NCBI GenBank assembly: GCA_029253965.1
Contig: JAQWYM010000077.1
Span: forward strand, 5,863-69,862
Source: Gammaproteobacteria bacterium
Lineage (GTDB): Bacteria > Pseudomonadota > Gammaproteobacteria > UBA4575
Direction of reading: 5' to 3'
DNA: 64,000 nt
The position numbers were made by a program, and so were the translations under genes. Of this stretch, positions 4,574 to 62,570 are shown piece after piece (position 1 is the first letter of the stretch; each line of letters opens with the position of its first letter). The notes under the pieces were generated by a model, which saw only the letters and a program-made list of their open reading frames with translations, had not been told where the DNA came from and did not search any database.

Positions 4574-5887
4574 CTATTCACTCTTCAGCAAAATTTCAGC
4601 ATTCTCTTGTTCATGCTCTGTAGTGGTCTCTGTGACGATATAAACCTCAAAGCGTGACATAAGCTCTGCACTTATACGTGCCTCTATCTGCCAAAACCCC
4701 TCAGCATCAAAGGATTCGGCTAGGACTGCGTTATGTTGGTGCAGTAAAGCGCGGTGATCACCCTGAGCTGGAGGCAGTTGTAAGTTCACAGTTTTATGAC
4801 TTTCACTAAAAAATTGAACCATCGCCGAGTGCAATAACGATAAGCCATCGTTCTCTAAGGCCGAAACCCAGATGCGACTGATCTGATTATCATCACCCCT
4901 ATCGACATGCGGTAACTGCTTAATCTGGTCGATTTTGTTGTAGACCAACACCTGCGGGCAGTGCTCTGCATTGATCATTTCGAGGACGGCGTTAACCTCA
5001 CGAATATGCTCATTACGCTGAGGATTCGAGGCATCGACAACATGTAAGAGTAAATCTGCCTCAACCGTTTCTTGCAGGGTAGCGTGGAAAGCCTCAACCA
5101 AGTCATGTGGTAAATCTTGGATAAAGCCGACGGTATCAGCAAGGATGATCTCATCGAAGCCTTCCAGTTGTAAGCGCCGCAGGGTTGGATCCAATGTCGC
5201 AAAGAGTTTATCCGCCTGATAGACCTTACTATCGGTAAGCGTATTAAACAGCGTCGACTTGCCGGCATTGGTATAGCCGACTAGGGCCACCGTAGGAATA
5301 GGTTTCTTGCGGCGTGCTTGGCGCCCTTGGTTTCGCTGCGAGCGCACCTTGGCTAAACGCTTTTCTAAAGATTTAACGCGCACCGCAAGTAGACGTCTAT
5401 CGGTCTCTAGCTGGGTTTCCCCGGGGCCGCGCATACCGATACCACCTTTTTGCCGTTCTAGGTGAGTCCAGCCACGCACTAGGCGCGTCGACATATACCG
5501 AAGCTGGGCAAGCTCAACCTGTAGCTTGCCCTCATAGGAGCGTGCGCGTTGTGCAAAGATATCAAGGATTAAGCCGGTGCGATCGAGTACGCGGCAGTGA
5601 CAGGCGCTCTCAATATTACGTTCTTGGCTAGGCGATAAAGCATGATTAAAGAGGAGCAATTCAATACCTTCAGCCTCTACTCTTTCAGCGAGCTCTTCGA
5701 GTTTACCGCCTCCGATAAGGAAGCGAGATTCTGGTTTAGCACGCGAATAGAGCACGATATCTAGGATATCGGCACCTGCTGATTTAGCTAAGAGTCTAAA
5801 TTCTTCAGTATCAGCGGGATCAGGGCTGCGGCCAAATGCGGGATGGACTAAGAGCGCGCTTTCGCCACTCTGCGGACGTTCAAACAC
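4574..5887 (-). CDS. hflX: GTPase HflX
   Basis: N-terminus MFERPQSGESALLVHP parallels E. coli HflX. G-domain motifs GYTNAGKST and DTVGF are present. The gene lies downstream of hfq. Confidence 0.9.
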   Translation of the reverse strand: MFERPQSGESALLVHPAFGRSPDPADTEEFRLLAKSAGADILDIVLYSRAKPESRFLIGGGKLEELAERVEAEGIELLLFNHALSPSQERNIESACHCRVLDRTGLILDIFAQRARSYEGKLQVELAQLRYMSTRLVRGWTHLERQKGGIGMRGPGETQLETDRRLLAVRVKSLEKRLAKVRSQRNQGRQARRKKPIPTVALVGYTNAGKSTLFNTLTDSKVYQADKLFATLDPTLRRLQLEGFDEIILADTVGFIQDLPHDLVEAFHATLQETVEADLLLHVVDASNPQRNEHIREVNAVLEMINAEHCPQVLVYNKIDQIKQLPHVDRGDDNQISRIWVSALENDGLSLLHSAMVQFFSESHKTVNLQLPPAQGDHRALLHQHNAVLAESFDAEGFWQIEARISAELMSRFEVYIVTETTTEHEQENAEILLKSE

Positions 5888-45490: not shown

Positions 45491-46069
45491 ATGCTTGGAT
45501 TTGTGGTTGCTGTTTTATTGAATCAAGGTTTTGTTCATGCGAATGAGGTTGCTCATTGGAGTGACTCAATTTATATCGGTGCGGGTGTAGGGCAACTCAA
45601 AGTGGATAAGAGCTTTTGTAAAATGTTTGAAGACACAACATCCTGTGATAGGAAAGATACAAGTTTCAAATTTTTTGTGGGTTATCAGTTTAATAAATAC
45701 TTTTCAACAGAAGTAGGCTATGTAGGCTTAGGAGAAATCTCACAGAAAGATAGTACAGGCTGGACTGGAGAACGGGAGGTTGACGGATTGATGTTACATG
45801 GTGTGTTTTCTTATCCGTTTACAGATAAAATAAGTGTCAATGCTAAAGTGGGTATTTATTCACTTAACAGGCAAGATACTGGGAGCGGTGGTATTTTTGC
45901 AAAAGCAAAAAATGATGAAGATGTTTCTGAGATCTCTCTAGGTATTGGTCTTGCGTATGATCTGAAAAATGGCTTTGCTTTGCGTGCTGAGTGGGAAAAG
46001 ATAGCTGTAGAGGAAAGCAGTGATGATGGGTTTGATTTGATTACAGCGAGTCTCTTGTACTCTTTTTAA
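45491..46069 (+). CDS. outer-membrane beta-barrel protein (OmpA-like/OMP_b-brl small barrel), paralog 1
   Basis: Signal peptide, alternating amphipathic strands, C-terminal ...SLLYSF Phe. Confidence 0.75.
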   Translation: MLGFVVAVLLNQGFVHANEVAHWSDSIYIGAGVGQLKVDKSFCKMFEDTTSCDRKDTSFKFFVGYQFNKYFSTEVGYVGLGEISQKDSTGWTGEREVDGLMLHGVFSYPFTDKISVNAKVGIYSLNRQDTGSGGIFAKAKNDEDVSEISLGIGLAYDLKNGFALRAEWEKIAVEESSDDGFDLITASLLYSF

Positions 46070-46304: not shown

Positions 46305-46907
46305 TTGATTGTTGCGGGAGGCGGAATCATGTCATTTCGAAAAAAAAACACAGTACCTTGTCTGTTGCTGTCCTATTTCATTTTATTGAGTGGCAGTACT
46401 CAAGCGGCTGAAGACTTCTGGTCTGATTTTTATCTGGGCTTTGCTGTCGGTGAGTCAGAGTTGAGTCGGTTTGATGTCTGTGAACAGAGTGCAGTGCAAT
46501 GTGATCTAAAAGAAAGCAGCCAAAAATTTTTTTCTGGCTATGAGTTTAATACCTTCTTTTCAGCTGAATTTGGTTATATGCGATATGGTGGTTTTGAGCT
46601 GGCAACAAATAATGAGAGTCATCTAGTCACAGATATTGATTCTTTATTCATTAACTCATTCTTGTCTTATCCTGTTTTTGAATGGGTCAATGTATTTGGT
46701 AAGTTAGGGCTTAATCGCTGGTCTATTAAGGGTGATTTGTTCGACAAGGAACTATCTTCAAATGATCTGGGGTACGGAATTAGTTATGGCCTTGGCATGA
46801 ATTTTAGTTTGAGTAAAAGCATCGGTATCCGTACTGAGTGGGAGAGGCTGTTCTTAGATAAGAATGAGTCTGATAGTTTAATGGGAAGTGTCATCCTTTC
46901 TTTCTGA
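46305..46907 (+). CDS. outer-membrane beta-barrel protein, paralog 2
   Basis: Same architecture as paralog 1 (FFSGYEFN / FVGYQFN motifs, C-terminal ILSF). Confidence 0.75.
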   Translation: MIVAGGGIMSFRKKNTVPCLLLSYFILLSGSTQAAEDFWSDFYLGFAVGESELSRFDVCEQSAVQCDLKESSQKFFSGYEFNTFFSAEFGYMRYGGFELATNNESHLVTDIDSLFINSFLSYPVFEWVNVFGKLGLNRWSIKGDLFDKELSSNDLGYGISYGLGMNFSLSKSIGIRTEWERLFLDKNESDSLMGSVILSF

Positions 46908-46914
46908 TCTATAT

Positions 46915-47871
46915 ATGAATAAGCCAACTTTATATATTTTATTCCTGATGATCCTTGCGCTCATCATTCTCACCTTGTTGAAGACACAAGGGGTCTCTTA
47001 TGAGCTTACTGAGAAAATCGAAACGCGTCATGAGATCACTAAAGTAGCCGCCAGTAGCTATGTTCGAAAAGGACAACATCGTCCTATCTTCAAATCGGAA
47101 GATATCGCTAATATTGGATTTATAATCGGTTCAAGCTGCGTTGCTGTTATTGATACTGGAGCAAGTTATAACGAAGGTCTTCGCTTGTTAGAGACAATTC
47201 GTGAGCTTACTGCCACACCTATTTGCTATGTGATTAACACCCATGCACACCCAGACCATATGCTCGGCAACAAAGCCTTTCAAGCAGCAGATGTGACATT
47301 TATAGGTCATCATAAACTGGCGCAAAGCTTGGCCTTGGTCGGCGATTTTTTTCTACAACGGTTACGTGCTTCTGAATATGCTACAGCGCAGGATACTAAA
47401 ATCATATTTCCAGATAAGGCGGTTAGTGGCACCCTCGAGCTTGATTTAGGTGATCGTAAGTTACAGCTAACAGCCCACGCTACGGCCCATACCGCTGCTG
47501 ATTTAAGTATTTATGATCCCAAGGATGATGTGTTGTGGCTTGGTGACCTCTTATTCCTGGAACATGTGCCTGCCTTGGATGGCAGCCTTCTCGGTTGGAT
47601 TGCAGAACTCGAAGACTTGCAAGATAAACAGATGACAACTGTCATTCCAGGGCATGGCGCAGTGAATAAGGCTTGGCCGCAGGCTGGTCATGGGCTGTTG
47701 CGTTACCTCAGGGTATTACGTGATGAAACACGCGAGTGGATTGCTGCAGGTGGAGACATAGAAGGGGCTCATGAGCATGTGGGATTGTCAGAGCGTGGTC
47801 TTTGGCAGCAGTTTGATGACTTCCATAAGCGTAATGTGATCAGTGCTTATGCTGAACTTGAGTGGGAGTGA
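46915..47871 (+). CDS. MBL-fold zinc hydrolase, membrane anchored (quinoprotein-relay-type metallohydrolase)
   Basis: HAHPDH zinc motif (INTHAHPDHMLGN). N-terminal TM anchor. Confidence 0.8.
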   Translation: MNKPTLYILFLMILALIILTLLKTQGVSYELTEKIETRHEITKVAASSYVRKGQHRPIFKSEDIANIGFIIGSSCVAVIDTGASYNEGLRLLETIRELTATPICYVINTHAHPDHMLGNKAFQAADVTFIGHHKLAQSLALVGDFFLQRLRASEYATAQDTKIIFPDKAVSGTLELDLGDRKLQLTAHATAHTAADLSIYDPKDDVLWLGDLLFLEHVPALDGSLLGWIAELEDLQDKQMTTVIPGHGAVNKAWPQAGHGLLRYLRVLRDETREWIAAGGDIEGAHEHVGLSERGLWQQFDDFHKRNVISAYAELEWE

Positions 47872-48002
47872 TTAGTGAAGATGTGGGTGATGTTTACATG
47901 GTATTCAGCCAATCAGAACTAGATGATTAACAAGTATTACTAATCAATTTAACGCTTAAGCCCGCCACTCACTGGTTATAATAAACTCTTGTTGATTAAC
48001 GA

Positions 48003-48791
48003 GTGATTATTATGCGCAGTCTTCATTTCATGCTTATTGTTAGCTTTGTGCTCGGTTCAAATGCATTTTCAAGCGATGACGCTTGGCAGTCACATTTGAA
48101 GTCTGATTATTTTGGGGCTAGTGAGATCATTGAGGACGAGTCTATTATGACGATCGATGGTCCTGTGAGAGCGGAAAACGGTGCCATTGTGCCGATACAG
48201 CTGCATGCACAGATTGCTCAGTCGGAAGCATTTTATATCAAGACAGTGACCTTGTTGATTGACGATAACCCTGATCCTCTGGCAGGCATTTTTCATTTCA
48301 CACCTTTGAGTGGTAAAGCTGACCTTGCGTTGCGAGTGCGCTTAAATAGTTATTCTAATGTGCGCGTTATTGCTGAAACCAGTGATGGCAAGTTGCATAT
48401 GAGTAAACGATTTATTAAAGCCAGTGGGGGTTGTTCAGCTCCGGTTGGCACCGATCTTGAGGCTGCTTTTAAACGTATCGGAAAAATGAAATTTAAAGTC
48501 AGTCCTGAAGTAGAACCACAACAATCAAAAAAACTACAGATTGCGATTAGTCATCCCAATGTCACGGGTATGCAAATGAATCAGCAGACTCGTCTTTATG
48601 AGCCGGCACATTATGTACGCAAGGTAAGGATTACCTTCAATGATGACGTGATTTTTTCAGCGGAGACAGGCATCTCTATTAGTGAGAATCCCAACTTTAG
48701 GTTTTATTTCGCAGCACAACAGCCGGGTGATCTGATTGCCCATGTGCAAGACTCGAAAGGGCTAGAGTTCACAGAAACCCTCAATTTATAA
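48003..48791 (+). CDS. fused SoxY-SoxZ-like thiol carrier protein (quinoprotein dehydrogenase-associated type)
   Basis: Signal peptide. The SoxY-like half (AENGAIVPIQL...LLIDDNPDPLAGIFHFTP...) ends in an internal GGC (KASGGCSAP) instead of the C-terminal GGCGG. The SoxZ-like half (IAISHPNVTGMQ...ISENPNFRFYF) follows. Confidence 0.8.
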   Translation: MIIMRSLHFMLIVSFVLGSNAFSSDDAWQSHLKSDYFGASEIIEDESIMTIDGPVRAENGAIVPIQLHAQIAQSEAFYIKTVTLLIDDNPDPLAGIFHFTPLSGKADLALRVRLNSYSNVRVIAETSDGKLHMSKRFIKASGGCSAPVGTDLEAAFKRIGKMKFKVSPEVEPQQSKKLQIAISHPNVTGMQMNQQTRLYEPAHYVRKVRITFNDDVIFSAETGISISENPNFRFYFAAQQPGDLIAHVQDSKGLEFTETLNL

Positions 48792-48816
48792 TCAAAGTTA
48801 TGTGCCCGAAAAAGGC

Positions 48817-49299
48817 TTATAACCCTAGTTCCTCTGATACTGAGAAGTCGACAACACGTTTTAGTAAGTTGTTGGTTTGTTTGCATAAAATCACGCAGTC
48901 CTGAAGTGTTTCTGGTAATAAATGAGCGCTCACATGGACTTTATTAGCGTCCTGCCACACCGCTATCCTGCAGGGCATTACGCTGATAAATCGTGGACTT
49001 ATATCAAGGAATTGTTTCGCAATCTCAAGATTGCATGAGTTAATGATGGTGTATTCTGGAAATGAAATGTCGTGTCTTTCTGCTATGGCTTTACCGACGC
49101 GATTAATCGATGTGACATTATAATTTTCATTACTGATAGCAAAGAGTAATTCTTCAATAACCGTATCAAAGTCTTTACTGGCTGTACTGCGATGATAGCT
49201 TGGGCTGTAGTCCAAGCTATTGCTAGCTGGAGATTGCAGATGGCTGCAAGCCCCTTGAGTCATGATAAAGCAAATAACCAGCGTCAGCTGTCTTAACAT
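48817..49299 (-). CDS. DUF302 family periplasmic protein
   Basis: Signal peptide with Cys, DUF302-like core. Converges on the carrier gene with a 25-nt gap. Confidence 0.65.
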   Translation of the reverse strand: MLRQLTLVICFIMTQGACSHLQSPASNSLDYSPSYHRSTASKDFDTVIEELLFAISNENYNVTSINRVGKAIAERHDISFPEYTIINSCNLEIAKQFLDISPRFISVMPCRIAVWQDANKVHVSAHLLPETLQDCVILCKQTNNLLKRVVDFSVSEELGL

Positions 49300-50339
49300 G
49301 GACTCTCAAGTAAATTGCTTAAAATAGTATTGATCTCAGAGAAGTCTGATTTATCCAGCCCCATCATTGCAAAATGCCCCCATAGACTATCTATAACGAA
49401 TAACTCACTATCGGTGATGAGTTTTTGCTCAAACAAACAGTCTTGCACTGGTATAAACATATCTTCAGAGAACGCTATATAGGATGTTTTTGCTGTAATG
49501 CGTTTCAATGCAGTATTTAAGTTGTTTTGGTAGGGTCGACTGCAGTTACCTTGCTTCCATTTGTCTGCCATTGCTAATAAGGCATTTGCATCCATCGGTG
49601 CAAACCACGCCTGCCAAAAATTACTGATAAATTCTTCTAGTGAGCTAAAGTCTAGGTTGCGCCAAGTTTCTTGCTTATAAAACTTAGTAGAAAGCCCCAT
49701 CATCGCGAAGACGGTTGCCAATCTATTGAGTCCTTCATTGACATCACTGGAGGCCAAATAATTACCATTATTCCAGTGGGGATCGCTGCGTAATGCCTGA
49801 GTGAAGACATCAATAAACAAGCCATCATGAGGGGTACATTGGGCTGTTCCTGCAATGGGTGCCGCACGTTTGACCATTTCTGGATGGGTCACAGCCCATT
49901 CTAAGGTTTGTTGTGCTCCCATTGACCAGCCCGTTACTAGAGCCAGTTCAGTAATACCTAAGCTTTGACATAGTTGATATTGAGCCTCAACATCATCAGC
50001 GATGTCCAAGGCAGGAAAATCACTCATGGCATTAATACTCGGCGTGTTATGCGGTGAGCTTGAAACACCATTACCTAATTGATCAGGGACGATGATGCAG
50101 TAATGTTCAGGGTCTAAGGCGAGCCCTGCTGCAATGTACTGTTTTAAACTGCTGTGTGTTCCGGAAAACATGACGGGGAATAAAATGGCATTACTTGCCT
50201 CTGCGTTAAGCTCACCATGCAGGCTATAGCTGAGCTGCGCATCTTTGATTGAGCCACCACGGCTTAGCTGAAAATCACCGAGACTAAAGTGATAGGCAGC
50301 ACCGATTGACTCTTTGCTGTAGAAATCATTCTTTATCAT
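49293..50339 (-). CDS. MetX-family alpha/beta hydrolase (homoserine O-acyltransferase-like), cytoplasmic
   Basis: MetX N-terminal pattern (...LHGELNAEASNAILFPVMFSG) and nucleophile elbow GWSMGAQQ. No signal peptide. Confidence 0.75.
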   Translation of the reverse strand: MIKNDFYSKESIGAAYHFSLGDFQLSRGGSIKDAQLSYSLHGELNAEASNAILFPVMFSGTHSSLKQYIAAGLALDPEHYCIIVPDQLGNGVSSSPHNTPSINAMSDFPALDIADDVEAQYQLCQSLGITELALVTGWSMGAQQTLEWAVTHPEMVKRAAPIAGTAQCTPHDGLFIDVFTQALRSDPHWNNGNYLASSDVNEGLNRLATVFAMMGLSTKFYKQETWRNLDFSSLEEFISNFWQAWFAPMDANALLAMADKWKQGNCSRPYQNNLNTALKRITAKTSYIAFSEDMFIPVQDCLFEQKLITDSELFVIDSLWGHFAMMGLDKSDFSEINTILSNLLESPC

Positions 50340-52928: not shown

Positions 52929-53873
52929 TTATCTGATGAAACGACCAAAGGCACGACTGCCATTACCTGTAGCAATACGCTTGATTAATTTAAATTCTAC
53001 GGTGTCTAAAACATAGACCTCATTATCAAACCAGCTGCTGACATAGAGACGTTTGCCATCAGGGTGTGCACTTAGTCCTTCGGGGAAGGTACCGACAGCG
53101 ATACGGCCTCTGGCTTGCCAGCTGCCTATGTCAAACAGGCTGATCGAATCATCTTTTTGGTTGGAGACGATTAAGTGTTTATCATCAATGCTGGTGGTGA
53201 CGGCATAGGGGCTACTTCCGGTTTGTAACTGTATGACCTCATGCAGAGTAACTGTATCAATAACGCTGACAGAGTCACTGCCAACATTGGCACTGAATAA
53301 CCATTTTCCAGAGTAGCTTAGGGCGAGACCAAAGGGCTTATGACCCAGCTTAATCGTATTGACGACTTTAAATTTTGTCAGGTCAATGACAGAGAGGCTG
53401 TCATCATCGCGGTTGGCAACATAAAGAGATTGACCATTAGGGTGCGTAACAATCCCTGCTGGACTCTTGCCAACTTTTATCTCATGAAGTAATTGGTAAT
53501 CTTCGCTGTTGTAGATACGCAGCATTCCTTCATACCAATCGACAACATAAAGATGTTTATCGTCGCTGCTTATGGCGATACCGAGTGGCCCACTACCCGA
53601 TGTAAAGGTATGGCTGACAGATAATGTTTGGCTATCAATAACGCTGATGGTTGCAGCGTCAGGGCTGCTGATGAAACAGGTGCTGCCCGTAATGTTGACA
53701 GCGACACCTGCTGGCCCTGAAGCCACAGTGAGAGTCTTGATGACTTCATCACTGTGAGTGTCAATGACTGAAACAGTGTCATCACCCTGATTGGTGATAA
53801 AAGCGTAAGGTTGAGCCAATAAGACACTATTGAAACTGCTAGCTATGATGAGGCCAGCAATGAATGCCTTCAT
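52929..53873 (-). CDS. YVTN-family beta-propeller protein (PQQ-dependent catabolism-associated type)
   Basis: Repeated V.VIDT / YV.N motifs. Start overlaps the upstream stop (ATGA), so it is part of the pqq transcript. Confidence 0.75.
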   Translation of the reverse strand: MKAFIAGLIIASSFNSVLLAQPYAFITNQGDDTVSVIDTHSDEVIKTLTVASGPAGVAVNITGSTCFISSPDAATISVIDSQTLSVSHTFTSGSGPLGIAISSDDKHLYVVDWYEGMLRIYNSEDYQLLHEIKVGKSPAGIVTHPNGQSLYVANRDDDSLSVIDLTKFKVVNTIKLGHKPFGLALSYSGKWLFSANVGSDSVSVIDTVTLHEVIQLQTGSSPYAVTTSIDDKHLIVSNQKDDSISLFDIGSWQARGRIAVGTFPEGLSAHPDGKRLYVSSWFDNEVYVLDTVEFKLIKRIATGNGSRAFGRFIR

Positions 53874-54394
53874 TCCTCAAGTATTTTTTTCAGCTCACTT
53901 AAGCCACTGACATAAATGCTTGTGACAGCTGCAATCGCTGCCTTATCGTTAAGATTTTCTGGTGGGTTATTATTCATGTAACCTCGATAAAAGGCACCCT
54001 GCCATGTTATTTCAGTATGGCCTTCACTGGTTTCATTGAGCTTGAACCAAGAGGAGTAGTTGTTAATAGGAATAACAGCGGTATCGACGTCTATTATACG
54101 GTAGAAAAACTTATGTTGAGCGGGGATGTATTTTTCTAGCGACTCGACAATGGTAGCTCCAGGTCCAAGGGTTAAGGTTCTTTTAGCGCCAATGCTATTA
54201 CCACCTTCACCTTCCGTGCTCATGACGGCAGGATGCCAGTTCATATTTTGGAAATTTTTGACGCTATCCCAAACTTTTTCAATAGGGGCATTAATAACAA
54301 TTTTCTCAACAACTTTTTGTCTGCTAGGCCCATGCGCAAAGCTTTCTGTAGTAACACTGAGAATAGATAATAAAAGGATAAACGTAACTTTCAT
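53870..54394 (-). CDS. SRPBCC (polyketide-cyclase-like) periplasmic protein, MxaD-like
   Basis: Signal peptide. SRPBCC fold cues (IEKVWDSVKNF...W). Immediately downstream of pqqE. Start MKVTF at 54394; the ORF-track start overlaps pqqE. Confidence 0.6.
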   Translation of the reverse strand: MKVTFILLLSILSVTTESFAHGPSRQKVVEKIVINAPIEKVWDSVKNFQNMNWHPAVMSTEGEGGNSIGAKRTLTLGPGATIVESLEKYIPAQHKFFYRIIDVDTAVIPINNYSSWFKLNETSEGHTEITWQGAFYRGYMNNNPPENLNDKAAIAAVTSIYVSGLSELKKILEE

Positions 54395-54428
54395 AAGCGA
54401 CTCTGTTTGGTTTGAATTTCGAATATAA

Positions 54429-55568
54429 CTAGTGTTCATTAAAAATATTGATGCGACGATAGGTGAAATTATAATCGGTACTATTCGCATCACAGGTGGC
54501 TAACTCGAGTAACTCCTGATGAAAAGGTGAATACTGGCAGGCGGGATCCATATTGCTGGCATCTCCGGTGATGGCAAAGGCCTGACAACGGCAGCCACCC
54601 CAGTCAATTTCACGTCGATCACACTTTTTACAGGTATCAGGCATCCATGCCGTACCACGGAAGCGTTGAAAGGCTTCGGAGTTTTTCCAAATTTCATTCA
54701 GTGGTTTATCAACGACACTATCAAAGCTGAGGCTGGTAATGCTTTCAGCAGCATGGCAGGGCAACACTAGGCCAGAAGGTGTAATGTTGAGGAATTGTCG
54801 GCCCCAACCACTCATGCATGACTTAGGAATCTTGGCGTAATAATCAGGCACAACATAATCAATTGAAAGAATGCCTTTAAGTGCTTTGCTCGCTTTTTTA
54901 ATTACTTCTGTAGCCCAATCCAGTTGTTTTCTGGTCGGCATTAAGTACTTTCGGTTGTAATAAGCCCAACCATAATATTGAACATGTGCGACTTCGATAC
55001 GTGAGGCATCCATATCGACAGCCATTTGTATGCTAGCTTCTAGATGATCAATATTGAGACGGTGAACAGGGGCATTAATGGTTAAGGGTATACCAGCCTC
55101 ACGAATATGTTTGGCAGCAGCTAGTTTTAATTGATAGCCATTAGGATGGCCGCCTATGGTGTTAGCGAGTTTTTCATCACTGTCTTGAATGCTGACTTGG
55201 ATATGCCCTAAACCTATTTCGGCTAGGGTGTTAATACGTGTTTGACTGAGGTTAACCGCTGAAGTGATGAGGTTGCTATATAAGCCAAGTTTCTCAGCAT
55301 GGGCAACAAGTGTCTCCAGATCTTTTCTGAGGGCCGGCTCACCGCCTGAGAAATGGACTTGTAATATACCCATCTCAGCCGCTTGATCCAATACCTGCAT
55401 CCATTGCTCAGTGTTTAGCTCTGAGGCTACTTTTTCAAGCTTTAATGGGTTTGAGCAATAGGGGCATTGTAGTGGGCAACGATGTGTCAACTCGAGTAAT
55501 AGTGCGAGTGGTGCTTTAGCTTCTTCAGCCATAGTAACTTCATCGGTAGCTTGATTATTCATACTCAT
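54429..55568 (-). CDS. pqqE: PQQ biosynthesis radical SAM protein PqqE
   Basis: CxxxCxxC (CPLQCPYCSN) and SPASM C-terminal cysteines. 379 aa. Confidence 0.95.
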   Translation of the reverse strand: MSMNNQATDEVTMAEEAKAPLALLLELTHRCPLQCPYCSNPLKLEKVASELNTEQWMQVLDQAAEMGILQVHFSGGEPALRKDLETLVAHAEKLGLYSNLITSAVNLSQTRINTLAEIGLGHIQVSIQDSDEKLANTIGGHPNGYQLKLAAAKHIREAGIPLTINAPVHRLNIDHLEASIQMAVDMDASRIEVAHVQYYGWAYYNRKYLMPTRKQLDWATEVIKKASKALKGILSIDYVVPDYYAKIPKSCMSGWGRQFLNITPSGLVLPCHAAESITSLSFDSVVDKPLNEIWKNSEAFQRFRGTAWMPDTCKKCDRREIDWGGCRCQAFAITGDASNMDPACQYSPFHQELLELATCDANSTDYNFTYRRINIFNEH

Positions 55569-55873
55569 AGTTGCATAAATCTTTTGTCGACTAGATCTTG
55601 TAATAAGAGGAGTACATCTTCTTCAATATCTTTAGAGTGTGCGTTGTATTCTGTAGAAAGCTGTTCAACAAGGGTGGCTATACTACAACTACCATCACAA
55701 CGACTAATAATGACCTGAGCAATAGGATCTAAGGAAATAACTTTTTCAGGGCCTAATAAAATCCATTGGTCTCGGGTCTTATCAAAGTTCAAACGTATGC
55801 GTTGACCTAACCGAACGATAGACTGAGTTGTAATGAGTGAGCGTTCTACTTGAGTATCATGACTTTTAATCAT
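55565..55873 (-). CDS. pqqD: PQQ biosynthesis peptide chaperone PqqD
   Basis: ~100-aa PqqD family. Overlapping stop/start with pqqE. Confidence 0.9.
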   Translation of the reverse strand: MIKSHDTQVERSLITTQSIVRLGQRIRLNFDKTRDQWILLGPEKVISLDPIAQVIISRCDGSCSIATLVEQLSTEYNAHSKDIEEDVLLLLQDLVDKRFMQL

Positions 55874-55876
55874 GGT

Positions 55877-56620
55877 TTAAGCAGGCTTAGTCAGTGTTGG
55901 AGTGAAACATCCAGGTGGGATCATGCCCGGCTCAATATACGCGCCATAAAGAGCATCTAATTGTGACCAAAGCACATTGCATTTAAAGGTGAGTGCCGCG
56001 GCAACCTTATCTTGTTTTTCAATGCTATCGGCATGCTCAAGAACGTAGGCTAAAGCAAAATCCACATCTCGTGGCGCTTGGCTTAAACGTGGTTTGAAAT
56101 AAGCCATAGTTTCTTCTGTTACAAAGTCATAATTAGCAAGCATTCCGCTTACACGTTCAGCGATGATGCGAGGTGAAAACATTTCAGTAAGAGAGGAGGC
56201 AATAGCCTCTAAAAGTGAGTTATCTGTAACAAAATTAAGATATGCTGAGACAGCAAACTGTGTCGCAGGTAAGGCGCCTTCTTGTGAGATCACATAATCG
56301 CGATCTAAGCCAAGACTGTCAGTAAGTTTAAGCCAGCGATTAATGCCGCCACTGTTACTGCCATCACCGTCATGATCAATCACACGCTGACGCCATATTG
56401 TTCGTAACATCGGGTCATCGATACGCGCCATTATTGCGGCGTCTTTTTTTGGGATTACCGCTTGGTAACAGTAACGATTAAGGGCCCATGCTTGAATTTG
56501 TTGCTTATTTAGATTACCTGCATGTAAATCTTTATGGAATGGATGCTGATCATGATAGCGTCTGCTGCCGATGGCGCGTAAACGCATTTCAAGTGTTTCA
56601 GAAGACTGATCGGTTGCCAT
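55877..56620 (-). CDS. pqqC: pyrroloquinoline-quinone synthase PqqC
   Basis: PqqC/TenA-like. 247 aa. Confidence 0.95.
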   Translation of the reverse strand: MATDQSSETLEMRLRAIGSRRYHDQHPFHKDLHAGNLNKQQIQAWALNRYCYQAVIPKKDAAIMARIDDPMLRTIWRQRVIDHDGDGSNSGGINRWLKLTDSLGLDRDYVISQEGALPATQFAVSAYLNFVTDNSLLEAIASSLTEMFSPRIIAERVSGMLANYDFVTEETMAYFKPRLSQAPRDVDFALAYVLEHADSIEKQDKVAAALTFKCNVLWSQLDALYGAYIEPGMIPPGCFTPTLTKPA

Positions 56621-57552
56621 TATAATTCTATCTCCATACCATCGTGACTGACTTCCCAGTTTGCTGCCTCAACAATTTTTCGCTGCTCTGAATGGGGGTC
56701 AAGTATTGGATTAGTATTATTGATATGAATATAAACTTTCCTCTTCACACCGAGTTGACTAAAGGCGGCAAGAGAACCATCAGTTCCAGTGATATTGGTA
56801 TGCCCCATTCTGGCGCCTGTTTTATTACCAATACCCATATCTATCATTTCATCATTATGGAAGAGGGTGCCATCAAACAAGACTAACTCAGCACTGCGTA
56901 AACGTTGTTGAAGTTGATCGTCGACCCGTGCACAGCCCGGAATATAGAAGAAAGTTTTGTTCGTGCTGATTTCAGTTATTTTTAAGCCAATAGTGTCTTC
57001 AGTAATGGTTCCAAGATTCTTATTGGAGGCTTCATCTTCAAGATAAAGCGCAACCTTTCCAGGGACAGCAAATGCAGTGATGCTAAGCCCTAATGATTCA
57101 TTATTATGTCCATCACACTCTATTTCTTCATTTAATGTGAAGCTTTTTCGAACAACGAAGGTTGTGTTTAAGACGCCAAATATAGGGTTATTGTTGAATA
57201 TACTTTGTAGGCGTGAAGTCGCATATAGAGTGAATGGCTGGCTCTCACGTAGATTTAGTAGGCCAGCTGTATGATCAACATCACCATTGCTTATGGCGAC
57301 GGATCTTATTGGGCTGTCTCGTAGTGCATCCTTTGGATGCAGTGCTGTTGTCTGATTGATTTGCTGACGTAAATCAGGTGAAGCATTACAGAGTAAGAAG
57401 TCAGTACCATTTGCACTAACAGCTATAGATGATTGTGTTCGCGGGAGTATGTCTGGTTTATGAGGGTCTCTCGCAGACTGGCAGAGTGGATTGTTGCAAT
57501 TCCATTGTGGAAACCCGCCTCCAGCCGCAGAACCTAAGATAATTATCTTCAT
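56620..57552 (-). CDS. pqqB: PQQ biosynthesis protein PqqB (MBL-fold)
   Basis: MKIIILGSAAGGGFPQWNCN N-terminus typical of PqqB. Confidence 0.95.
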   Translation of the reverse strand: MKIIILGSAAGGGFPQWNCNNPLCQSARDPHKPDILPRTQSSIAVSANGTDFLLCNASPDLRQQINQTTALHPKDALRDSPIRSVAISNGDVDHTAGLLNLRESQPFTLYATSRLQSIFNNNPIFGVLNTTFVVRKSFTLNEEIECDGHNNESLGLSITAFAVPGKVALYLEDEASNKNLGTITEDTIGLKITEISTNKTFFYIPGCARVDDQLQQRLRSAELVLFDGTLFHNDEMIDMGIGNKTGARMGHTNITGTDGSLAAFSQLGVKRKVYIHINNTNPILDPHSEQRKIVEAANWEVSHDGMEIEL

Positions 57553-57584
57553 ATACTATCTGCGGCGCAGAGAGGGATGTATCT

Positions 57585-57668
57585 TTATGCTACAACTGCG
57601 CAAGCATAACAATTAATTTCCATACCAACTGCAATCTCTGAAACTAATGGTGTTTTCCAAGTCTTCAT
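57585..57668 (-). CDS. pqqA: PQQ precursor peptide PqqA (27 aa: MKTWKTPLVSEIAVGMEINCYACAVVA)
   Basis: Hand translation of the minus strand. Conserved E-x3-Y (EINCY) cross-link residues. Lies 33 nt upstream of pqqB. Absent from the ORF track because of its length. Confidence 0.8.
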   Translation of the reverse strand: MKTWKTPLVSEIAVGMEINCYACAVVA

Positions 57669-57850: not shown

Positions 57851-57905
57851 TGAGGTGTCGTCACTGCGCTTTAAAAGCACTCAAGCTCAGCATCAGAGGT
57901 GATGC
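57851..57905 (-). terminator. probable terminator or attenuator hairpin 3' of the 114-aa gene and upstream of pqqA (gcttgag...ctcaagc, then T-run)
   Basis: Inverted repeat with a large loop followed by agcttttttt on the minus strand. Weaker than the other terminators. Confidence 0.4.
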
Positions 57906-58215
57906 TATTGAAGTTGCTAATAATTTCATTAGACCAAGCTGATTCTGTGAATATTGCTGCACGTTCACCTCGCATTAGTCGCATGCGTAACACCGTTTCT
58001 GCATCAACATATTCTGCATAGCTTATTTGCTCAGCAATCTCATCAATAGTGCAAGAGCACTTCGCTAAGTACGCTTGGCTTTGACCATTGGCAGCCATAC
58101 AGGCAAAAACAAACTCTGCTCGTGACTGCGTTGGGAAGTCGTTGGCATATGCACTTACAAGCAGTAGATGAAGGAGGGTGAAAGTAATGATGTTATTTCT
58201 TATTTTTTTTCTCAC
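57871..58215 (-). CDS. hypothetical periplasmic protein (114 aa, 4 Cys including CSC)
   Basis: GTG start with a GAGG RBS. Signal peptide MRKKIRNNIITFTLLHLLLVSAYA. No family recognised. Confidence 0.5.
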   Translation of the reverse strand: MRKKIRNNIITFTLLHLLLVSAYANDFPTQSRAEFVFACMAANGQSQAYLAKCSCTIDEIAEQISYAEYVDAETVLRMRLMRGERAAIFTESAWSNEIISNFNSITSDAELECF

Positions 58216-58260: not shown

Positions 58261-58941
58261 TTAACGCGTGTAACTTAGTTCTGTCTTAATTGTCTTCCCA
58301 TCTTCTTCATAATGACTCATCAAACTTTTAAAGCCACCAGGGACAGCCTTGCTTACAATGAACTCATACTGTCTTTTTTTCACAGCATCAATACGCTTAT
58401 TTGCTTTAAAAGGCGAAATACTAATTCGTTTTCCTGCGTGTACTTTATTTTCATATGTAATTGTGACGTCTTCTATTTTTGCATCGTTCCATAAGGCGGC
58501 ACGAATTTTGTTTCTTAGTACAGTTTTTGAATGTTTATTTGTTGTTGAATTCAGCGTCTCGCCTATGTCCCACTCTAAAAAAAACATAATGATTGGATTC
58601 GATTGAAAACCAATGACTTTTGGGAATGGCTTAGCCTCATCGTTATAGAGAAACTCATAGAAAACATCCCTCTTAGTTTCCGCGTCTGCAGCGCTGACTT
58701 CACCTATTACTGATCCTTTTATAGGGTCTGGACCATTGCGCGTCAAAACATATGTAATCTCTGTCGATTCCGCGCCTAAGTTTTGTAAATGTGGGGTACC
58801 TTGCAATAACATCTGTGCTTCGCTGAAATCATTCTCAGCAATTTCTGCATAGCTAGTGCTGAATAGCCCTATTATGATTATGAGAGTTTTTGTTACAGAA
58901 GCTAATAACTTCACTGAGCTTTGGTAATGCAGTGATCTCAT
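58261..58941 (-). CDS. hypothetical periplasmic protein (226 aa) translationally coupled to xoxJ
   Basis: The ATG (58939-58941) lies 1 nt after the xoxJ TAA. Signal peptide MRSLHYQSSVKLLASVTKTLIIIIGLFSTSYA. No family recognised. Confidence 0.6.
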   Translation of the reverse strand: MRSLHYQSSVKLLASVTKTLIIIIGLFSTSYAEIAENDFSEAQMLLQGTPHLQNLGAESTEITYVLTRNGPDPIKGSVIGEVSAADAETKRDVFYEFLYNDEAKPFPKVIGFQSNPIIMFFLEWDIGETLNSTTNKHSKTVLRNKIRAALWNDAKIEDVTITYENKVHAGKRISISPFKANKRIDAVKKRQYEFIVSKAVPGGFKSLMSHYEEDGKTIKTELSYTR

Positions 58942-58942
58942 C

Positions 58943-59773
58943 TTAGATTTGTTTGACCATCGGTACATGGTATTCCTCTAATATCTGATTTATCTGGCTT
59001 TGATTTTGCTTTATAAAGCGATTTATTCGACGTTTCCATTCGATCTCACCATGTCTTACTCCCATGGTGATGCTGTAGGACATTCTGGTTGCCTCACTAT
59101 CATCTTGAGTCAAAGGTGAAACGCTTAATGAGGGTGCATATTTGTCGCCGTAGTACCCTGCGATTGGGCCCCAAAGAATTGCTGCCGTTAGTGTCTTATC
59201 ATTCAAATGCTGCATTATTTGTTCACCAATCGATATGCTTCGAGTGTCGACAAATAAATGGTAGGGGGCGAGCTGGTCTATGAGACCATAATTCAACATT
59301 AAGTTGGTTGGCGGTGTGCCTGCAACGATGCCGATACGTTTCATTGCCTTCACTGTCGGGTGATCTAATGTATTGATTAAAGTCGTACTATCAGCAGCGT
59401 AGATGAGTGAAAAGATTGATCGATAATAAGCATTGGTATTCAGTGCTAAACCGTGTGCTGATGAGATACCAATAATGACATCGCAGTTATATGCATTCAA
59501 TGTTGATCTAACAAATCCTTGGCTTTGTGGGAACCAGTGATATGAAATCTCTTTTTTAAGGTCTTTAGCCAATAATTGAGCGATCTTATTTTCAAAGCCT
59601 TCTTCAGCATCATTTGAAAACGGTAGATTACTCGGGTCTGCACAGACTCTAAGTGTAATATGATCTAGCACTTCTGCTGTGTTTTGTGCCATTACTCCAT
59701 TAAATATCAATAGCGTGCTAAGTGCGCTGCTGAGTACAAGATTTTTAATGTGGGTGGATGTTTTTGTCATCAT
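58943..59773 (-). CDS. xoxJ: MxaJ/XoxJ family periplasmic binding-protein-like protein
   Basis: Signal peptide. SBP type-3-like fold. Position xoxF-xoxG-xoxJ. Confidence 0.8.
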   Translation of the reverse strand: MMTKTSTHIKNLVLSSALSTLLIFNGVMAQNTAEVLDHITLRVCADPSNLPFSNDAEEGFENKIAQLLAKDLKKEISYHWFPQSQGFVRSTLNAYNCDVIIGISSAHGLALNTNAYYRSIFSLIYAADSTTLINTLDHPTVKAMKRIGIVAGTPPTNLMLNYGLIDQLAPYHLFVDTRSISIGEQIMQHLNDKTLTAAILWGPIAGYYGDKYAPSLSVSPLTQDDSEATRMSYSITMGVRHGEIEWKRRINRFIKQNQSQINQILEEYHVPMVKQI

Positions 59774-59798: not shown

Positions 59799-60269
59799 TT
59801 AGGGTAGGCAAGCCGAATCACGTTCTTTAGCGGCCGCTGGTTTGCCTTGTTTTTTTGGCCGATTATGATCAAGAACACCATCTGATCTTGCGGCTAAATA
59901 AGCGTAGATGTCATCAACAAAGCACATGACATTCATGTTGCTTGCAAAGGATGGCATGTTTCTATTTTGAGTATTACTCACATTCGTTCTGCCATTAATA
60001 ACGGTTTCTAAAAAACCTTCATAACCTAAGACTTTCACAGACTCGGTTAGGTTGGGGGCAAATGAGCTGCCAAGACCTGCGGGTCCATGACAGACATGAC
60101 ATTCTGAATGGTAGCGTCGATAACCATTGAATGTGTACCAGTCGAACTCACCCTTATCATTGATTGAATATGGGGTTTCATCAGCATCAGCATAGACTGG
60201 GCTAACTACGAATTGAGCAATAACGACTGTTAATGAGATGAGAAAAATTTGAGGATATTTAAATGACAT
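59799..60269 (-). CDS. xoxG: cytochrome c-L-like electron acceptor for methanol dehydrogenase
   Basis: Single CHVCHG haem motif. Signal peptide. Between xoxF and xoxJ. Confidence 0.8.
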   Translation of the reverse strand: MSFKYPQIFLISLTVVIAQFVVSPVYADADETPYSINDKGEFDWYTFNGYRRYHSECHVCHGPAGLGSSFAPNLTESVKVLGYEGFLETVINGRTNVSNTQNRNMPSFASNMNVMCFVDDIYAYLAARSDGVLDHNRPKKQGKPAAAKERDSACLP

Positions 60270-60441: not shown

Positions 60442-62232
60442 TTATAGTGAAAATACAGTGAGTACGCCACCTAAGTTGGTGTATTCCTGTAAATGGCGAT
60501 AACCACCTACAGCACCTAAGCCATCAGAGTCTTCTGTTAAACCAGCAGCCATACCAATGCCAGCCCAGCCACCAATGCCTGATAGGACAGCAATATATTG
60601 CTTACCATCATGCTGATAGGTGGTGACATTGCCAATGATGCCTGACGGGGTCTTGAAGCGGTAAAGTTCCTTACCTGTTTTAGCGTCAACTGCTTTTAGA
60701 TAACCTTCTAAGGTACCGTAGAATACAATATCTCCAGCAGTAGCTAAGGCACCACTCCAAACTGAGAATCGTTCATCGATAGACCATTTGATCTTTCCCT
60801 TATCTGCATCCCATGCAATGAAGTTACCCATATGTGTGCCACCGGGTGCTGGATACATTGCTAAAGTTGCACCCACATACGGTTGACCCGCGGTATAACT
60901 TACACGGAATGGTTCATAATCCATGCAAACGTGGTTGGTAGGCACATAAAACAAACCAGTCTTTGGTGAGAAAGCTGCGGGTTGTTGATCCTTGGAGCCT
61001 AGGGCTGCAGGACAAATACCAGTAGAGCTAACATCTTCACCATTAAACTCAGTGCTATAACGATCAACTACCTGTGGTCGACCCGTCTTCATGTCAACAT
61101 GAGTAGCCCAGTTAACAGCTGGATCGAATTTTTCGGCAACTAAAAGCTCACCAGTCTTTCGGTCAAGGGTATAACCAAATCCATTTCTATCGAAATGAAC
61201 TAAAGCAGGTCGTTTTTTACCTTTGACTTTAATATCAGCAAGAATCATCTCGTTAATGCCATCAAAATCCCACTCATCATGAGGAGTCATCTGATAAACC
61301 CATTTAGCCATGCCGGTATCAACATCACGTGCAAAGATAGTCATAGACCAGCGATTGTCACCAGGACGTTGAGTTGGGTTCCATGTACTTGGGTTGCCTG
61401 TGCCGTAATAAACAAGGTTTAGATCAGGGTCATATGAATACCAACCCCAAACAGTACCACCACCAATTTTCCACTGGTCACCTTTCCAAGTGTTTAAGCC
61501 AGAGTTTTTACCGACAGCCTTACCTAGATGAGTAGTTCTTTTAGGGTCGACTAAAATATCTGAGTCAGGGCCCATTGAATAACCACGCCAAGCCAGCTTA
61601 CCTGTCTTGATGTCATAAGCTGTCATTGAACCACGAACACCGAATTCACCACCTGATATACCGACTAATACTTTGTCTTTTATAACGTGTGGTGCAGCAG
61701 TACCTGTTTCACCCAAGGCGATATCACCATTAGCTACACTCCAGGCTTTCTTACCTGTGTTTGCGTGAAGCGCAATTAAGGTGGTGTCAGCTTGATACAT
61801 AAATATTTTGCCATCACCGTAAGAAAGGCCACGATTGACTGTGTCACAACACATCACAGGGATGGTTGATGGGTCTTGCTTAGGTTCATAAGACCAGATG
61901 ATGCGTTGATCATCATTGAGGTCTAAAGCGAATATCTTGTTTGGGAATGGTGTGTGGATATACATCACATCACCAATTATGAGAGGCCCACCTTCATGAC
62001 CACGTAAGACACCAGTCGAAAATGACCAAGCCACTTTTAATTCATTTACATTGCGTGAATTAATTTGTTTCAGTTTCGAATAGCGTTGATTAGAGTAATC
62101 ACCAGCAGGCATAACCCATTGTTTTGGGTCTGATGACATTCGTTCTAATTCTTGATTTGCAGTAGCGAGGGATGATGTCAATGTAGTAACCATTCCAGCT
62201 AGTAACAAAACAGCGGATTTTGTACTTTTCAT
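60442..62232 (-). CDS. xoxF: PQQ-dependent, lanthanide-type methanol dehydrogenase
   Basis: 8-bladed PQQ propeller. Vicinal disulfide CC (VMCCDT). DEWDFDG carries the extra Asp two residues after the catalytic Asp (XoxF D-x-D; MxaF has D-x-A). Start taken at MKSTKS (signal peptide) with an AGGAG RBS. Confidence 0.9.
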
Positions 62233-62570
62233 AGTGTTAAGGCTCCTCTTGATTTCAGTTATATTTACAAGGCTATAGGTTTTTAATATCACATGTTATG
62301 TGTTCATAATATTAACTTATGTCCTAAAAAACTATTGCCTATAGAGTATAGTTAGAATGTATAACTACATACAATGATTTTATTTGGGCCTGTTTGAAAA
62401 AGTCATAGGTTTTTATTGATCTTCATTAAATTTGAATGAGTGACAAATGTTACATAATAAAAATGAGGAAATGGTTATAAATTCGAGGAGGTGATCATTG
62501 AAAAGTAATTTTATTATTTTTTAATTAATTTGGTAACAAGAATTAGTAATAAAGGACACAGGATAAATAA

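Follow-up and report, generated by a model that had tools for sequence, protein, structure and literature searches.

The window considered here is a stretch of 64,000 nucleotides (nt) from an uncultured marine gammaproteobacterium (assembly GCA_029253965.1, contig JAQWYM010000077.1, forward-strand positions 5,863 to 69,862). It holds a plus-strand pair of genes encoding a hydrolase of the metallo-β-lactamase (MBL) fold, similar to SoxH, and a SoxYZ-like carrier, on which the gene of a DUF302 protein converges from the opposite strand (Table 1). The three open reading frames (ORFs) called in the initial annotation are all present, with E-values far beyond chance. The hydrolase and the carrier are, with near certainty, the two-gene core of the "quinoprotein relay system", a family defined computationally in NCBIfam by the models TIGR04557 (carrier) and TIGR04558 and TIGR04559 (zinc metallohydrolases 1 and 2). 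In this genome, the pair belongs as an accessory module to a cluster for a lanthanide-dependent methanol dehydrogenase of the XoxF5 type. The initial annotation had named only the genes for the cofactor pyrroloquinoline quinone (PQQ), pqq, and the XoxF5-type dehydrogenase encoded in the same window had gone unmentioned.

Table 1. Position and assignment of the features of the relay module and of the XoxF-PQQ array in the 64-kb window.
Feature	Coordinates	Strand	Assignment and remarks
Quinoprotein relay system zinc metallohydrolase 2	46915..47871	+	318 aa from ATG; TIGR04559, Pfam Lactamase_B
SoxYZ-like carrier	48012..48791	+	259 aa; TIGR04557, Pfam SoxY and SoxZ
Cys144 codon, putative carrier thiol	48432..48434	+	motif K-A-S-G-G-C-S-A-P
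Secreted DUF302 protein	48817..49299	-	160 aa; PF03625; last gene of the minus-strand array that starts from xoxF
MetX-like alpha/beta hydrolase	49293..50339	-	NF005757 "hypothetical protein", 412.9 bits (cut-off 332)
YVTN beta-propeller	52929-53873	-	score under the cut-off of TIGR03866, a model of PQQ-associated propellers
SRPBCC/polyketide-cyclase-like protein	53870-54493	-	
pqqA (57585-57668), pqqB, pqqC, pqqD, pqqE	54429..57668	-	within the same array
u114, secreted all-helical protein	57871..58215	-	114 aa; invariant C39, C53, C55 and C113; recurrent partner of the carrier
u235, secreted protein between xoxJ and u114	58261..58968	-	235 aa; no described family
XoxJ-type periplasmic binding protein (MoxJ_2)	58943..59773	-	TIGR03871, 276.5 bits (cut-off 212)
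XoxG-type c-type cytochrome, methanol metabolism-related, four-cysteine type	59799..60269	-	TIGR03874, 174.3 bits (cut-off 161.75)
XoxF (XoxF5-like) lanthanide-type PQQ methanol dehydrogenase	60442..62292	-	616 aa; TIGR03075, 781 bits

The assignment of the core pair is carried by profile searches, in which the curated cut-offs are the model thresholds of NCBIfam and, for Pfam, the gathering threshold. The carrier matches TIGR04557 over the whole profile (positions 1-226 of 226) with 269.3 bits for a cut-off of 140 (E 2.1e-80), and the hydrolase matches TIGR04559 with 347.7 bits for a cut-off of 280 (E 4.8e-104), while it fails the type-1 model TIGR04558 (159.5 bits, cut-off 300). The families are thus those that had been guessed from the sequence and, as both proteins pass, a standard pipeline using these models would name both. 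The family is already named and the window copy is an ordinary member of it.

The carrier is a fusion of SoxY and SoxZ, as first proposed, with Pfam domains at residues 34-144 (SoxY, E 7e-35) and 173-259 (SoxZ, E 9e-26). The length of 262 residues given before is that of the ORF read from a GTG (48003-48791, plus strand), but the ATG listed in Table 1 is the likelier start because the closest homologues have 259 residues. Secretion was judged by eye from the N-terminus, MRSLHFMLIVSFVLGSNAFS, which resembles a Sec signal peptide; confidence of the AlphaFold2 model is low over roughly the first 23 residues, with a predicted local distance difference test (pLDDT) below 50 at residues 1-3 and 17-23. 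The SoxY-like half does end in an internal Gly-Gly-Cys (KASGGCSAPVG, residues 139-149), and HMMER aligns Cys144 with the C-terminal arm cysteine of the SoxY chain 4uwq_B. With SAPVG and the SoxZ-like half after it, this cysteine (residue 144 of 262) lies inside the chain and does not belong to a C-terminal GGCGG as in a separate SoxY. The carrier also scores below the cut-offs of the true SoxY model TIGR04488 (74.7 bits, cut-off 125) and of the true SoxZ model TIGR04490 (59.8 bits, cut-off 76). The AlphaFold2 model (pLDDT 87, predicted TM-score 0.84) is weak only at the signal peptide and at residues 143-148, the cysteine loop, where pLDDT is below 50, and its halves can be superposed on SoxY (2ox5_Y) and SoxZ (1v8h_A) with target TM-scores of 0.84 and 0.85, respectively. 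The confident model and these superpositions suggest that the SoxYZ architecture is kept, with Cys144 predicted to sit on a flexible loop within the chain, where SoxY has a free C-terminal arm.

Conservation of the Gly-Gly-Cys cysteine, on which the idea of a carrier depends, was followed through the homologues. The motif around Cys144 (Table 1) is invariant in an alignment of 40 carrier homologues, down to 47% identity, and GGC is found in 81 of the 81 primary carrier ORFs that were checked. Six loci had been retrieved with a search pattern devoid of Cys; GGC is present in all six, which removes the circularity of the other, Cys-containing pattern.

The hydrolase gene precedes the carrier gene by 131 bp, in the same orientation. 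An alternative start, a GTG at 46888, would give 327 residues; a 74%-identical relative of 317 residues is called from the equivalent ATG. The protein matches Pfam Lactamase_B (E 3.5e-22) and, weakly, the GloB model TIGR03413 (25.4 bits, cut-off 200.8), and among solved structures chlorothalonil dehalogenase (6uxu, E 1.9e-12) is the nearest. It had been described as a membrane-anchored MBL-fold hydrolase with an HAHPDH motif. The gene and the motif stand, but the anchor is a hydrophobic N-terminal segment, judged by eye, that could equally be a cleaved signal peptide. The putative ligands H119, H121, D123, H124, H201, D220 and H256 (numbering of the 327-residue form), each at least 90% conserved in 56 homologues, would make up the full two-metal set of non-lactamase MBL hydrolases; the metal may be zinc, but the pattern also fits iron enzymes of the same fold.

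The genomic setting of the pair is a minus-strand array of 13.5 kb (62292 to 48817) that converges on it, in the order xoxF-xoxG-xoxJ-u235-u114-pqqABCDE-SRPBCC-YVTN propeller-porin-like-311-aa protein-MetX-like-DUF302, so that xoxF stands 11.6 kb from the module. Counted with the pair that closes it, the array measures 15 kb. The true start of xoxF is probably the ATG at 62232. Its product carries a vicinal Cys-Cys (VMCCDT) and the motif WDFDG, in other words the extra Asp two residues past the catalytic Asp; in the SolV enzyme this residue is Asp301, and its presence is diagnostic of a lanthanide enzyme (PMC5784242). Its best solved relative is Methylobacterium extorquens XoxF1 (6oc5, E 7e-299), with which a stretch of 14 residues is identical.

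The linkage extends well beyond this genome. The comparison set consists of the best 80 carrier-relative loci, one genome per species, with carriers 41-58% identical to that of the window. The hosts are mostly Methylococcales and sulfur-oxidising or sediment Gammaproteobacteria, with few Beta- and Alphaproteobacteria, and the set leaves aside the window's own species; the closest sequences to the window carrier are metagenomic. The neighbouring ORFs of all loci were clustered and then re-searched with profile hidden Markov models (HMMs). The hydrolase gene was found in 56 of the 80 loci and, in 55 cases, immediately precedes the carrier on the same strand; the tally of this arrangement counts 57 loci with a hydrolase. 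A xoxF-type PQQ dehydrogenase lies within 10 kb of the carrier in 25, upstream and divergent in 20 of them, and u114 is present in 28, convergent in 20 with a median distance of 64 bp past the carrier stop. Where both flanks of the carrier extend to 5 kb or more (48 loci), the hydrolase is found in 34, u114 in 21, the dehydrogenase in 18, a XoxJ-type protein in 17, DUF302 in 12 and the cytochrome in 11. Twenty-two of the 24 dehydrogenases that cluster with that of the window, itself included, carry the vicinal CC and the motif WD[YF]DG. The dehydrogenase linked to the carrier is therefore almost always of the lanthanide type and, as the association recurs across lineages, the linkage with lanthanide-type XoxF is real.

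A second association concerns formate. In many Methylococcales, the pair is found away from xoxF, at 1-4 kb from genes for a NAD-formate dehydrogenase, fdsAB, and a LysR regulator (L009, L011, L014, L023, L024, L030, L038, L050, L052 and L054 are among these loci). One subunit was recognised near the carrier in 13 loci and the other in 12, the names fdsA and fdsB being assigned by eye from sequence; an fdsA-like gene also lies near the carrier of one Methyloversatilis locus (L078). This agrees with the fdhAB linkage that passages of a 2024 SoxY study report for the fusion clade SoxYZ-S4 (PMC11237559).

DUF302 is a genuine yet facultative partner of the carrier. Its convergence on the pair, noted from the start, is close, since only 25 bp separate its stop from that of the carrier. 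The association is partial: 15 of the 80 loci have DUF302, which in 12 of them lies downstream on the opposite strand and in 13 is accompanied by u114. A word-indexed reciprocal search from DUF302 returned eight homologues; the three with a readable context (L081, L084 and L085) are close relatives in which an alpha/beta hydrolase-DUF302 unit converges on carrier(s) and hydrolase, as in the window. The protein matches PF03625 with 52.4 bits (gathering threshold 23, E 4.8e-14), its export signal was judged by eye from the N-terminus, and its sequence is weakly similar to that of TT1751 (PDB ID 1j3m, E 0.014). Its invariant cysteines, C89 and C110, both align with cysteines of TT1751, the sole other DUF302 protein compared. 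The stop of the neighbouring MetX-like gene overlaps the DUF302 start by 7 nt, so that the two genes probably form one operon. As the MetX-like protein is devoid of a signal peptide, an enzyme that is apparently cytoplasmic would share a transcript with a secreted protein. The same pairing is found in L001, L002, L081, L084 and L085, and this link is specific to the lineage of the window.

Among the other members of the array, u114 ends in C113-F114, and the N-terminus of its mature form, NDFPTQARAEYVFACMAANGQ, is conserved; searches of Pfam and NCBIfam gave no family for it, its homologues are unnamed and no similar solved structure was found. Its four cysteines are predicted to lie in separate helices of a helical bundle. 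Homologues of u235 occur in six other loci, at the same position and with the same gene set (Thiothrix, Arenicellales, Variovorax and others). The pqq genes exceed the cut-offs of TIGR02108, TIGR02111 and TIGR02109, and the pqqA ORF has the E-x-x-x-Y motif. Besides the SRPBCC and YVTN genes, the segment 50367-54493 (minus strand) encodes a porin-like protein of 426 residues, devoid of family match, and a secreted protein of 311 residues; all of these genes recur in the closest relatives (L001, L002 and some Woeseiaceae).

Several searches of the window gave negative results. Neither soxAX, soxB nor soxCD was found among 38 window ORFs scanned against NCBIfam, and in the remaining 40 kb, where 20 of the 37 ORFs of at least 150 residues in 1-40 kb were scanned, all matches are to housekeeping genes and none to sox. 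A CXXCW motif, as expected of a rhodanese partner, is present in no window ORF longer than 65 residues, and profiles built from related loci retrieved from the window neither a second carrier gene, nor a type-1 hydrolase, nor a pentapeptide-repeat protein. Rfam and tRNA scans of the whole 64 kb detected no structured RNA and no tRNA, and a scan of the window for promoters and terminators yielded no more sites than shuffled sequence. The module DNA matched no plasmid record, and a mobile element is therefore not suggested.

Variations on the core pair were observed in other loci. The metagenomic locus L084 (10512-12371) has two tandem SoxYZ-like carrier genes, coding for 315 and 279 residues, downstream of a single hydrolase gene, and other metagenomic contigs may also hold two carriers (P0013/P0044, P0017/P0081 and P0021/P0109). 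In a Variovorax metagenome-assembled genome (L070, 13289-14279), a split SoxY-like ORF with the canonical C-terminal ending ILGGCG and a separate SoxZ-like ORF lie in a xoxF locus that also has a fused carrier, so that fused and unfused carriers can coexist near one XoxF. In some Methylococcaceae (L040, L049, L067 and L068), the place directly upstream of the carrier is taken not by the hydrolase but by the gene of a LuxR/NarL-type response regulator. In three betaproteobacterial loci, another SoxH-like hydrolase, sharing about 27% identity with the first, is encoded downstream of the carrier (L065, 9273-10226; L070, 10729-11733; L078, 11205-12248). Type-1 enzymes were expected here, but these proteins fall below the cut-offs of both TIGR04558 and TIGR04559 and may form a third, unmodelled subtype. 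Directly upstream of the window hydrolase are two genes for small OmpA-like β-barrel outer-membrane proteins (45491-46069 and 46305-46907, plus strand), the second of which stops 7 bp before the hydrolase ATG. The order of this OmpA-like pair and the hydrolase is kept in L081, whose carrier is 74% identical, and no homologue of the OmpA-like genes was found in the 80 genome loci.

On the simplest reading of the pair, an adduct would form on Cys144 and the hydrolase would remove it. Among the chemistries that may be considered, an aldehyde relay is ranked first, tentatively and at well under an even chance. The Cys144 thiolate would add to an aldehyde made in the periplasm by XoxF, formaldehyde, yielding a carrier-bound thiohemiacetal. 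Being chemically an alcohol, the latter could serve the PQQ enzyme as substrate, and its oxidation, with the electrons passing to XoxG, would leave a thioester (S-formyl) on the carrier. The metallohydrolase would then hydrolyse the thioester, as glyoxalase II does acyl-glutathione, to release formate and regenerate the carrier. Overall, the scheme would amount to glutathione-dependent formaldehyde oxidation transferred to the periplasm and to a protein thiol. We infer every chemical step of this scheme, as well as zinc as the metal and a physical contact with XoxF.

The aldehyde relay is favoured because the pair is linked to enzymes of one-carbon metabolism, xoxF here and formate dehydrogenase elsewhere, because members of the family are frequent in organisms making no use of sulfur compounds, because neither a sox nor a rhodanese gene was found among the window ORFs scanned, and because a thioester needs exactly a hydrolase. 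The Asp, instead of Cys, at the fifth ligand position matches glyoxalase II and most non-lactamase MBL hydrolases. Passages of the 2024 study report fdhAB and xoxF linkage in lucinid and Bathymodiolus symbionts and the presence of the family in organisms that do not oxidise thiosulfate, and its authors there also favour a role in carbon metabolism (PMC11237559). A wider version, in which carrier, hydrolase and XoxF form a periplasmic pathway where the aldehyde is never free, with u114, u235 and DUF302 as further dedicated components, is possible at best and can be entertained only with reserve.

A number of points weigh against the aldehyde relay. M. extorquens XoxF1 reportedly yields formaldehyde in vivo although the module is present. 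The carrier cysteine is located on an internal loop, not on a free C-terminal arm, and the PQQ site of XoxF is buried. The metal-ligand pattern is common to thioesterases, sulfatases and persulfide dioxygenases, and is therefore not discriminating. The hydrolase is lacking nearby in 14 of the 48 well-flanked carrier loci. In L072, L077 and L080 the carrier stands alone between thiL/TetR-like and aldolase genes, beside riboflavin (and thiamine) genes, with no hydrolase and no dehydrogenase within 10 kb, so that their context is uninformative on function. Transposon mutants of the Pseudomonas putida homologues had minimal phenotypes on alcohols, in assays performed without lanthanides (PMC12997753). 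Other objections point to sulfur instead of carbon chemistry: the homologies to SoxY, SoxZ and SoxH, the DUF302 genes inside true sox clusters of Acidithiobacillia (PMC5037610), and the rhodanese partner of the Pseudomonas and lucinid clusters (PMC12997753, PMC11237559).

These objections lead to the close second, which is itself no better than a possibility to be kept in mind: a handling of, or protection from, sulfur adducts. The carrier cysteine would take sulfur off PQQ or off the strained vicinal disulfide of XoxF after attack by sulfide, polysulfide, sulfite or thiosulfate and hold it as a persulfide or S-sulfonate, a rhodanese helping in some organisms. The SoxH-like hydrolase would then release sulfate or sulfite, and the dehydrogenase would stay active. 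The retention of the sulfur-binding GGC motif and the recurrence of DUF302 beside the carrier fit this scheme, as does the fact that many hosts are sulfur oxidisers or sediment bacteria (Thiothrix, Thiogranum, Woeseiaceae, Ectothiorhodospiraceae). The literature further reports that thiosulfate inhibits growth of Hyphomicrobium denitrificans on methanol but not on formate, and already proposes a protective role for SoxYZ-S4 (PMC12997753, PMC11237559). In Sulfurimonas sp. strain CVO, it is SoxH that replaces SoxB for sulfate release from SoxY, according to a passage of the 2024 study (PMC11237559). Conversely, methanotrophs, Pseudomonas and Methylobacterium, none of which lives on sulfur compounds, commonly have members of the family, and the scanned window ORFs include neither a rhodanese nor a SoxAX-like enzyme to load thiosulfate. 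H. denitrificans is inhibited by thiosulfate despite having the gene (PMC11237559), and the genes flanking its Sox(YZ)/SoxH cluster show no response to this compound (PMC11582611), an observation that also favours the aldehyde relay.

A third and unlikely explanation is the maturation or redox upkeep of XoxF. As a periplasmic thiol-disulfide relay, the module would here see to it that the vicinal Cys-Cys is formed, repaired or resolved, or would aid assembly, with the participation of u114, DUF302 and the four-cysteine cytochrome. The near-constant vicinal CC and lanthanide motif of the clustered dehydrogenases and the invariant cysteines of u114 and DUF302 are in its favour, and enzyme maturation or redox control is the role preferred in a 2026 review (PMC12997753). 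However, the calcium-type enzymes MxaF and ExaA form the same disulfide without the module, which Pseudomonas aeruginosa lacks (PMC12997753). The metallohydrolase has no obvious part in disulfide exchange. The cysteines of u114, placed in separate helices of the predicted bundle, would suit structural disulfides, and those of DUF302, since they align with the cysteines of TT1751, may be general to the domain and not special to the module.

That the pair is a genuine thiosulfate-oxidising SoxYZ/SoxH unit placed near pqq and xox by chance is effectively refuted: it has the Pfam SoxY and SoxZ domains and a fold matching SoxYZ structures, but it falls short of the SoxY and SoxZ model cut-offs while passing the quinoprotein-associated one, its cysteine belongs to an internal GGCSAP and not to a C-terminal GGCGG, soxAX, soxB and soxCD were not found among the ORFs scanned in the window, and the xoxF linkage recurs in many lineages. 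A carrier ferrying PQQ as a thiol adduct to the apo-dehydrogenase, suggested by the nearby pqq genes, was also rejected, as pqq linkage is found in few loci and the hydrolase would be left without a role; moreover, thiols should reduce PQQ instead of carrying it.

No methanol dehydrogenases are more widespread in nature than the lanthanide enzymes of the XoxF type, whose accessory genes have poorly understood roles. Few of these accessories are linked as consistently as the SoxYZ-like carrier/SoxH-like hydrolase pair. The window adds no new kind of system but a clean example from an uncultured marine gammaproteobacterium, and the interest lies in the function of the family, not in this copy. 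If the aldehyde relay operates, it would be a protein-thiol counterpart of glutathione-dependent formaldehyde detoxification and would explain why some XoxF systems seem to make formate directly. What is added here is modest: a sharper definition of the module, as a hydrolase-carrier core often accompanied by u114, DUF302 and u235, and its linkage to the lanthanide type.

The initial annotation had presented such families as defined only computationally, with nothing known of their biochemistry. The second part holds (PMC12997753), but the field is less unexplored than implied, as two recent papers show. The 2026 review describes, in the Pseudomonas ped cluster, PP_2677 (SoxYZ-like), PP_2678 (SoxH-like) and PP_2666 (rhodanese), conserved with lanthanide- and PQQ-dependent dehydrogenases, and homologues near xoxFGJ in M. 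extorquens, and it proposes either disulfide maturation or the shielding of PQQ from sulfur nucleophiles (PMC12997753). The 2024 SoxY study distinguishes the fusion clades SoxYZ-S2, associated with a quinoprotein alcohol dehydrogenase, soxH and rhodanese, and SoxYZ-S4, associated with xoxF and fdhAB (PMC11237559). The window module shares with PP_2677/PP_2678 of P. putida KT2440 and with META1p1703-1705 of M. extorquens AM1 the hydrolase-then-carrier order and a lanthanide-type PQQ dehydrogenase with vicinal Cys-Cys. Unlike the named examples of the quinoprotein relay system, it has a type-2 hydrolase only, devoid of a type-1 paralogue, and lacks both a rhodanese/CXXCW partner and a pentapeptide-repeat PedD-like protein. 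Its position at the far end of the array also differs from that of most relatives, where module and xoxF are adjacent and divergent.

Likewise, the SoxYZ-S4 and SoxYZ-S2 proteins of lucinid, Kuphus and Bathymodiolus symbionts and of H. denitrificans resemble the window carrier, as far as they are described in those passages, in being fused SoxY-SoxZ proteins with a divergent arm motif, a soxH neighbour and a xoxF link (PMC11237559). The formate dehydrogenase link reported there for SoxYZ-S4 is seen in relatives of the window, and the passages on SoxYZ-S4 and SoxYZ-S2 do not mention DUF302, u114 or u235 partners (PMC11237559).

Canonical SoxYZ (Paracoccus pantotrophus, PDB IDs 2ox5 and 2oxg; Thermus thermophilus, 4uwq) has the same two immunoglobulin-like folds (target TM-scores 0.84-0.85), a Gly-Gly-Cys at the homologous position and an adjacent gene for an MBL-fold SoxH-like protein. 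It is, however, a heterodimer where the window carrier is one polypeptide, its cysteine is borne by the C-terminal GGCGG arm of SoxY and not by an internal loop (GGCSAP), its signal is of the twin-arginine type whereas that of the window carrier is Sec-like by inspection, and it works with SoxAX, SoxB and SoxCD, of which the scanned ORFs of the window contain none. The HxHxDH...H...D...H ligand pattern of the window hydrolase is also that of glyoxalase II, likewise of the MBL fold. By analogy, glutathione-dependent formaldehyde oxidation and glyoxalase II would share the logic of the proposed relay, in which a thiol and an aldehyde give a thiohemiacetal, then a thioester, then the substrate of a hydrolase. 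The relay would differ from the glutathione route in that its thiol is protein-bound, its location periplasmic, and its oxidant a PQQ/lanthanide enzyme instead of a NAD enzyme.

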